Below, piece by piece: positions 61,039 to 61,654 of a DNA stretch of 64,000 nt (positions are counted from its first letter, which is position 1; every line of letters starts with the position of its first letter). The notes below the pieces were generated by a model, which worked only from the letters and a program-made list of their open reading frames with translations, had not been told where the DNA came from and did not search any database. The position numbers and the translations under genes are program-made. Source of the DNA: a phage; the sequence record PQ724392.1. One strand, 5' to 3'.

Positions 61039-61049
61039 AATATTTATAT

Positions 61050-61240
61050 TCCATAGTACCGGATGCACCATCCGCTCGGATTTCTCATACTACCGGGCGC
61101 ACCGCCCGCTCTGGAAAAACTCCGTAAAAGGGTGCGCCGTTTCAGCTGTGGTAGTAAAGAACCAGAACACAGTAAAACTGTGGGAGGAACTATACTTCAG
61201 GGAACTTCAGTCCGACGACTTACCGGTAGCGACCCGGTTT
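61050..61240 (-). other. structured intergenic element with paired hairpin repeats
   Basis: Two ~24-nt direct repeats each folding into a short hairpin with CAC loop, plus downstream complement of the second; no ORF; adjacent to tRNAs. Strand not determined. Confidence 0.3.
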
Positions 61241-61241
61241 C

Positions 61242-61481
61242 TCATTCAATTGTAATAGCTAATTTGACTTTAACAACCTTATAATTGGAATCAAGGTCAT
61301 TGAATTCCATAAAATTTGTTGCTAATCTGCGAGTCGGGAAACTTAGATATTTATTATGCTCAGGTGGAGCAGTTAATGCAAACCATGGGACTTGTTTATC
61401 ATTTTCATCAAACTCATCAAAGCTATAAACCAGCTCGTTGTTGGTTATATCCATAACTGCATATGATTCACTAATAACCAT
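61242..61481 (-). CDS. hypothetical acidic protein
   Basis: Start moved to MVISESY; the ORF-track N-terminal extension is the reverse complement of tRNA-Arg. Confidence 0.4.
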   Translation of the reverse strand: MVISESYAVMDITNNELVYSFDEFDENDKQVPWFALTAPPEHNKYLSFPTRRLATNFMEFNDLDSNYKVVKVKLAITIE

Positions 61482-61486
61482 AATAT

Positions 61487-61563
61487 CCTCGGTAATTGGT
61501 CGGGGTGGTGGGATTCTAACCCACAACCTACGGTTTAGAAGACCGTTGCTCTATACAATTGAG
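61487..61563 (-). tRNA. tRNA-Arg (anticodon TCT), CCA encoded
   Basis: Folded by hand: acceptor CGGGGTG/CACCCCG, D-arm GCTC/GAGC, anticodon stem ACGGT/ACCGT with loop CTTCTAA, T-arm GTGGG/CCCAC, discriminator A + CCA. Confidence 0.8.
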
Positions 61564-61565
61564 CT

Positions 61566-61639
61566 ACACCCCGGGTGGCCCCATCCGGACTTGAACCGGA
61601 AACCTGCCAGTTATGAGCCGGATGCTCTAACCAATTGAG
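61566..61639 (-). tRNA. tRNA with anticodon CAT (Met or lysidine-type Ile)
   Basis: Folded by hand: acceptor GGCCCTG/TGGGGCC (two G-U), D-loop with GG, anticodon loop CTCATAA, T-arm TCCGG-TTCAAGT-CCGGA; 2-nt spacer to tRNA-Arg. Confidence 0.7.
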
Positions 61640-61654
61640 CTACAGGGCCTAAAA

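Follow-up and report, generated by a model that had tools for sequence, protein, structure and literature searches.

The tRNA pair G19:C56 is regarded as almost invariant; the ribosome, RNase P and further elbow readers stack on its outer face, and C56 may be important for TruB and TrmA. In E. coli the tRNA-Arg(UCU) encoded by argU is rare, and this rarity is commonly given as the reason why phages carry copies of their own. The argU tRNA has the same anticodon and identity elements as the phage tRNA described here, and presumably the same ArgRS; its elbow is canonical G19:C56, unlike that of the phage tRNA-Arg. The 19:56 pair is described as the elbow's only tertiary Watson-Crick pair and as exposed (PMC4810234), and it caps an A58-G18-R57-G19-C56 stack whose flat face is touched by ribosomal protein L5 and by other elbow readers (PMC4810234, PMC7912444). 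A pair other than G19:C56 is documented in tRNAPyl of Methanosarcina, where U19:A56 forms a tertiary Watson-Crick pair and mutation to G19:C56 stabilises the tRNA (PMC5758916). For tRNA-Arg, or for tRNAs of T-even phages, no report of U19:A56 was found in open-access full texts; older tRNA compilations may list it.

Here we analyse a tRNA-Arg(UCU) gene in 64,000 nucleotides of phage DNA (PQ724392.1; “the window” in the following). Our data suggest that this is very probably a functional, AGA-reading phage tRNA-Arg(UCU) in which the elbow pair has been swapped for U19:A56 in a structure-preserving manner.

The tRNA genes of the window

The window stems from a T-even-type coliphage (Straboviridae, Tevenvirinae). 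Its G+C content is about 40%, and the minus strand carries 69 of the 73 long ORFs. The 351 bp around the tRNAs are at least 99% identical to the Escherichia phages ECML-359, TH54, pEC-M719-6WT.2 and others, and 95% identical to vB_EcoM_VR20. ARAGORN identified two minus-strand tRNA genes in the window, and both occupy the counterpart of the T4 tRNA region. The features referred to below are as follows.

61497..61573, minus strand: tRNA-Arg(UCU) gene, 77 nt including the encoded CCA (ARAGORN and Rfam); acceptor stem from C1-G72 to G7-C66, discriminator A73
61552..61560, minus strand: D-loop AAUUGUAUA of tRNA-Arg, numbered A14 A15 U16 U17 G18 U19 A20 U20a A21
61555: U19 of tRNA-Arg
61554: A20 of tRNA-Arg, the main bacterial ArgRS identity nucleotide (PMC9976931)
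61537..61539, minus strand: anticodon UCU of tRNA-Arg, reading AGA and, by wobble, AGG (ARAGORN)
61513..61519, minus strand: T-loop UUAGAAU of tRNA-Arg, numbered U54 U55 A56 G57 A58 A59 U60
61517: A56 of tRNA-Arg
61574..61649, minus strand: tRNA(CAU), upstream of tRNA-Arg (ARAGORN; Rfam, 62.2 bits)

Read on the minus strand, the 5´ part of the tRNA-Arg is CGGGGUG UA GCUC AAUUGUAUA GAGC A ACGGU CUUCUAA ACCGU and the 3´ part is AGGUU GUGGG UUAGAAU CCCAC CACCCCG A CCA. The cloverleaf comprises stems of 7, 4, 5 and 5 bp, a 7-nt anticodon loop with U33, a variable loop of 5 nt and a 7-nt T-loop. All stems are perfectly paired, with zero non-canonical pairs flagged in the cmscan structure line, and the gene scores 73.7 bits (E = 9.4e-16) against Rfam RF00005, the gathering score of which is 29. 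The remaining conserved core (U8, A14, G18, A21, U33, G53, U54, U55, A58 and C61) is complete. The bacterial arginine identity set comprises A20, C35, U/G36 and A/G73 (PMC9976931); A20, C35, U36 and A73 are all found in this tRNA. In place of the canonical G19 and C56, however, the tRNA carries the complementary U19 and A56.

The preliminary description of this DNA had placed a tRNA-Arg at 61487-61563 without naming a strand. The interval hits the same gene but is shifted by 10 nt downstream, so that it omits the first 10 nt of the tRNA and takes in 10 nt beyond the CCA; ARAGORN and Rfam agree on 61497-61573 and on the minus strand. Its reading of the T-loop as TTAGAAT with an A at position 56 was confirmed on the minus-strand sequence and in the ARAGORN bracket output for identical sequences, and its T at position 19 of the D-loop is base 61555, as established by the sequence, gap-free homology and covariation (see below). 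It had also proposed to run ARAGORN on the region. This run calls tRNA-Arg(tct); prediction did not fail, and the ARAGORN loop boundaries did not restore G19/C56.

Two normally invariant positions that are off consensus could also mark a decaying or non-functional copy in which invariant positions are drifting. We regard this as extremely improbable, and the pseudogene reading was rejected in view of score, stems, conservation and the nature of the changes. The covariance-model score lies above that of the canonical neighbour (73.7 versus 62.2 bits), the stems are perfect, and the remaining core nucleotides as well as the arginine identity elements are intact. The (near-)identical sequence occurs in about 20 phages and the variant is kept in more than 200, and the two changes are exactly complementary.

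The adjacent tRNA with a CAT anticodon, described earlier as canonical at both positions, is indeed so, with D-loop AAUUGGUUA (G18 G19) and T-loop UUCAAGU (C56). ARAGORN calls it “Met”. In an alignment, the acceptor stem GGCCCUG and other features are common to this tRNA and the annotated T4 tRNA-Ile, and one near-identical phage record annotates it as trnI; it is a homologue of T4 tRNA-Ile and probably a lysidine-dependent reader of AUA. There is zero spacer at the junction of the two tRNAs (61571-61577): C1 of tRNA-Arg directly follows the 3´ end ...GGGGCC-A-CC of the upstream tRNA. The CCA of tRNA(CAU) is therefore incompletely encoded, and A76 would need to be added after RNase P has cut a dimeric precursor. 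Promoter and terminator scans remained at shuffle background.

Further downstream, about 50 nt (61197-61246) are 96% identical to a T4 segment overlapping the 5´ end of rnaD (species 2 stable RNA). In T4 this segment adjoins the tRNA-Arg; its counterpart in the window is located about 250 nt from the tRNA-Arg, with a small ORF in between. The stretch is also kept in RB51, JS10, SP18 and KAW3E185. The G+C-rich region 61040-61245 downstream of the tRNAs folds no better than shuffles (z = -0.8, not significant).

Numbering and covariation of positions 19 and 56

Position 56 is unambiguously an A because the T-loop comprises 7 nt. In the D-loop there is one G among nine bases, and the Rfam alignment sets this loop in another register: cmscan places U17 and G18 under the G18 and G19 of the model and treats “au” as an insertion, so that the single G comes to lie at 19, with a posterior of 6/10. 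Taken at face value, this would set G19 against A56 as a G-A mismatch and leave the elbow irregular or unpaired, without any compensation. Evidence from homologous tRNAs bears directly on this scenario.

The preliminary description had suggested an alignment with the tRNA-Arg genes of related phages, and in this alignment 19 and 56 covary. Among the T-even relatives, AAUUGUAUA always occurs together with UUAGAAU (window, TH57, RB51, JEP6, N2, teqskov, KAW3E185 and ESCO10), and GG always occurs together with UUCGA or UUCAA (JS10, SP18, Merlin, Serratia 4S, TG1, PWKp18 and 24-2-1). The same association was recovered from IMG/VR in scans in which one partner was left free. With the U19 D-arm and UCU fixed and the T-loop free, A56 was present in 24/24 contigs, which span at least seven acceptor-stem families; conversely, fixing the A56 T-arm and leaving the D-loop open gave GUAUAG (U19) in 9/9 contigs, in three additional D-loop contexts. 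A scan of IMG/VR anchored on the anticodon arm alone retrieved mostly canonical genes, plus the T-even U:A genes and one tRNA with a GA D-loop and UUUGAAU, i.e. A19:U56.

For 62 distinct aligned tRNA-Arg(UCU) sequences, 19:56 is G:C in 42, U:A in 17 and A:U in one; the two other rows are cases in which MAFFT slid the D-loop by one column. The cloverleaf cells of this alignment are paired in 99%, compared to 70% in shuffles and 28-46% with slid partners, and all 21 cloverleaf pairs are backed by compensatory changes. Across all isotypes (892 unique tRNAs from 319 loci, ARAGORN), a base other than C at position 56 is almost confined to tRNAs without GG in the D-loop. All four Watson-Crick combinations are found at 19:56, with U:A, A:U and C:G each occurring in several isotypes and with two to three discordant cases. 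GG combined with a non-C56 was seen three times, namely as a numbering artefact, a G-U wobble and an apparent mismatch. The earlier claim of a paired change to U19:A56 that keeps the elbow pair is well supported by these scans and counts.

The Rfam register was produced by the cmscan alignment itself, but it is hard to reconcile with these data. The base directly 3´ of the invariant G tracks position 56 (U/A, G/C, A/U and C/G), and the G is constant throughout, as G18 should be. Moreover, the GG-containing relatives read UUGGAUAGAGC where the tRNA-Arg reads UUGUAUAGAGC, without any gap, and A20 falls into one column for the canonical relatives and the tRNA-Arg of the window; it follows from this gap-free homology that the G is G18 and the next base U19. 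We consider an uncompensated G-A mismatch very improbable, and the Rfam alignment was dropped as a numbering guide in view of its low posterior and of the gap-free homology and covariation, by which the register G18-U19-A20 can be taken as fixed. Tools for tRNA detection and numbering schemes should not presume a GG in the D-loop.

U19 and A56 would thus pair in three dimensions, as judged from their covariation. A U:A pair is an isosteric replacement for G:C, and so the interdigitation of D-loop and T-loop, the L-shape and the flat outer face of the elbow would be kept, at the cost of one hydrogen bond compared to G19:C56. The sole departure from a textbook tRNA lies in this Watson-Crick tertiary pair, and purifying selection would act on the pair 19:56 and not on each base.

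Several other tertiary contacts vary in the same data sets. The Levitt pair 15:48 covaries in the 62-sequence alignment (columns 15 and 51), with A15:U48 in 38 and G15:C48 in 22 sequences; A15:U48 is found in 16 of the 17 U19:A56 sequences, that of the window included (window bases 61559 and 61525). A19:U56 occurs in Val, Arg, Thr, Gln, Glu and Met phage tRNAs, three of them in the IMG/VR locus L130 alone, and C19:G56 in Leu, Thr, Gly and Cys phage tRNAs. Taken together, phage tRNAs from IMG/VR loci (L130, L235, L311, L313 and others) show all four Watson-Crick versions of 19:56. In a group of environmental phage contigs from IMG/VR (L138-L158; e.g. L138, L139, L141, L145 and L153) many tRNAs show more radical elbow changes. 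In some, T-loops UGCAAAU or UGCGAGU, with G55 for U55, occur with UAG for UGG in the D-loops, an apparent 18:55 covariation; in other tRNAs of this group the T-loop AGCGUUA, with A54...U58, swaps the U54:A58 reverse-Hoogsteen pair. These elbow changes are stranger than U19:A56 itself.

Distribution and origin of U19:A56

U19:A56 is a known kind of variation that is not particular to the window, and the gene is already in GenBank in identical form. The tRNA-Arg matches the annotated one of VR20, and also that of RZ, at 100% identity; TH57, a match to the window locus that is classed as Gaprivervirus, has an identical tRNA-Arg as well. At an identity of at least 99% the window type is represented by 18 records, and overall it occurs in about 20 GenBank phages. 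The RB51-type U:A tRNA-Arg is represented by 201 GenBank phage records, 139 of them at an identity of at least 99%. In total, about 220 T-even phages in GenBank carry a U19:A56 tRNA-Arg, and so do many metagenomic phages. The 19:56 feature is annotated in none of the T-even-type tRNA-Arg records compared (VR20/RZ/TH57 and RB51/JEP6/KAW3E185/ESCO10).

The species genomes of GTDB contain 60 matching stretches, about 45 of which belong to Pseudanabaena/Pseudanabaenales and include complete chromosomes. The remaining matches are from Eggerthellaceae/Coriobacteriaceae, Lentisphaerales, Paceibacterota and a few other MAG contigs, and some of these non-Pseudanabaenales matches may be phage DNA. The tRNA-Arg(UCU) of Pseudanabaenales (L163-L222; e.g. 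L206, the chromosome of Pseudanabaena minima, L202 and L193) has U19:A56 in the context GUUGUAUAGAGC ... GGUUAGAGUCC, and the other tRNAs in these loci are canonical. Like the tRNA-Arg of the window it shows G18-U19-A20-U20a-A21, the UCU anticodon and the D-stem GCUC/GAGC; its T-loop is UUAGAGU. In contrast, it lacks an encoded CCA and has discriminator G, the acceptor stem GGGCUAG and another anticodon stem, and 15:48 is G:C instead of A:U. The occurrence in about 45 species genomes and in complete chromosomes, the lack of an encoded CCA and the conserved stem GGGCUAG argue for a native cellular gene. The flanks of the Pseudanabaena tRNA-Arg genes are mostly not conserved in a synteny comparison. 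The Pseudanabaenales tRNA-Arg represents a clade-wide cellular case of U19:A56.

With respect to the origin of the variant, the U:A genes of RB51 and of an IMG/VR contig (L161) share 93-95% identity with that of JS10 (G:C) outside the two loops, and all three have one acceptor stem, CGAGGCA...UGUCUCG. Therefore, either the state was switched within the T-even tRNA-Arg lineage or a D-loop/T-loop module was exchanged between genes. Both states are present within Dhakavirus and within Gaprivervirus. The step from G:C to U:A comprises two transversions with no wobble intermediate, and whole D-loop/T-loop modules possibly move between tRNA genes. U19:A56 would be inherited in a widespread lineage, or in several lineages, of arginine tRNAs.

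Function, arginine bias and comparison with known systems

The tRNA-Arg is predicted from its sequence to be expressed, processed and charged. In an infected enterobacterial host it would add to the capacity for reading AGA (and AGG) codons, and it probably shares a dimeric precursor transcript with the tRNA-Ile-like tRNA(CAU) upstream. In the 73 long ORFs of the window, AGA accounts for 11.3% of the arginine codons (5.1 per 1000), and AUA accounts for 10.9% of the isoleucine codons in the long ORFs. In E. coli both codons are about half as frequent. This doubled usage fits the usual role of phage genes for tRNA-Arg(UCU) and tRNA-Ile(CAU).

A different question is whether U19:A56 is a neutral swap or an adaptive trait tied to arginine tRNAs. 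A first isotype scan with A20 fixed (83/83 Arg) was circular, as A20 itself is specific for arginine, and was superseded by two matched scans of IMG/VR. In the patterns of these scans, GCUCA-N2-4-G[U or G]-N1-3-AGAGC-N19-GGU-N5-GUU[A or C]GA, neither position 20 nor the anticodon was constrained, and both scans had one D-stem and one variable-loop anchor in common; 80 matches of at least 120 were listed per pattern, and the canonical control covered the UUCGA T-loop only. Among the matches listed, 43 of 54 unique U19/A56 tRNAs were arginine tRNAs (anticodons UCU 23, CCU 11, UCG 6, CCG 2 and ACG 1), compared to 29 of 102 unique G19/C56 tRNAs. For the matches listed, and with unique sequences treated as independent, the odds ratio is 9.8 (Fisher p 1e-9).

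A purely neutral swap would not lead one to expect such an enrichment, although it is limited to the matches listed. The base at 19 directly precedes A20, the chief determinant for ArgRS, to which the enzyme has to gain access in the D-loop, and a weaker or reshaped 19:56 pair beside it could tune the binding of ArgRS; recognition by enzymes that modify the T-loop or D-loop, or by other elbow readers, could also be altered. The variant further turns up in hosts that are not related to each other (T-even coliphages, many environmental phages, about 45 Pseudanabaenales genomes, and MAGs of Eggerthellaceae, Lentisphaerales and Paceibacterota), and the tRNAs near the Pseudanabaena gene are otherwise canonical. 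Nevertheless, we regard an adaptive swap as rather unlikely. Common descent could explain the bias: one old tRNA-Arg lineage that drifted between arginine anticodons would give an equal enrichment, with the unique sequences not being independent, and the enrichment rests on 80 matches listed per pattern and a control restricted to the UUCGA T-loop. In addition, U19:A56 is also found in Thr, Asn, Pro, Gly, Ile, Lys, Met and Ser tRNAs, and most tRNA-Arg are canonical, including those of T4, JS10 and SP18, which presumably function just as well in that host. A search of the open-access full-text literature found no paper that connects 19:56 with ArgRS.

A bolder version, which we put forward only tentatively and consider improbable, is that G18-U19-A20-U20a-A21 together with UUAGAR defines a distinct, recurrent class of arginine tRNAs with all arginine anticodons, in which the elbow has a function beyond a neutral swap. 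With about the same low likelihood, this class, taken jointly with a functional elbow, would span T-even coliphages, many uncultured phages and several bacterial clades. If true, the elbow would, for example, tune ArgRS recognition or let the tRNA evade a nuclease or other enzyme that recognises C56 or the face of G19:C56; should the arginine bias be functional, arginine identity would gain a structural element. Otherwise, U19:A56 is a clean textbook case of the covariation of a tertiary pair.

Among the known systems, tRNAPyl shares with the tRNA-Arg of the window only U19:A56. tRNAPyl is an atypical amber suppressor with structural similarity to mt-tRNA-Ser (PMC5758916), whereas the tRNA-Arg is otherwise a canonical class I bacterial-type tRNA with G18, U54, U55 and A58. 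An identification of the window tRNA as tRNAPyl was excluded on the basis of its anticodon (UCU, not CUA), its 9-nt D-loop with G18, its 5-nt variable loop and its U54 U55. The tRNA-Arg genes of RB51, JEP6, KAW3E185 and ESCO10, as well as those of VR20, RZ and TH57, match that of the window in UCU, AAUUGUAUA, UUAGAAU, CCA and the position in the tRNA cluster. The RB51 type differs in a few stem pairs and is about 86% identical overall (93% over positions 8-63). In contrast, the T4 tRNA-Arg (T4t001), although also a phage tRNA-Arg(UCU) in the homologous region, has canonical G18 G19 and C56 and belongs to a separate sequence lineage (GUCCCGC... with D-stem GGUG). The tRNA-Arg(UCU) genes of JS10 and SP18, again in the homologous region, combine the RB51-type acceptor stem with a canonical elbow (G18 G19, C56). 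The tRNAs of T4, JS10 and SP18 therefore provide natural canonical-elbow controls from the same host range. The phage tRNA with U19:A56 and the G19:C56 tRNA of JS10/SP18 form a natural isogenic pair in which the identity of the elbow pair can be weighed against its geometry, with a bearing on folding, modification, charging and translation.
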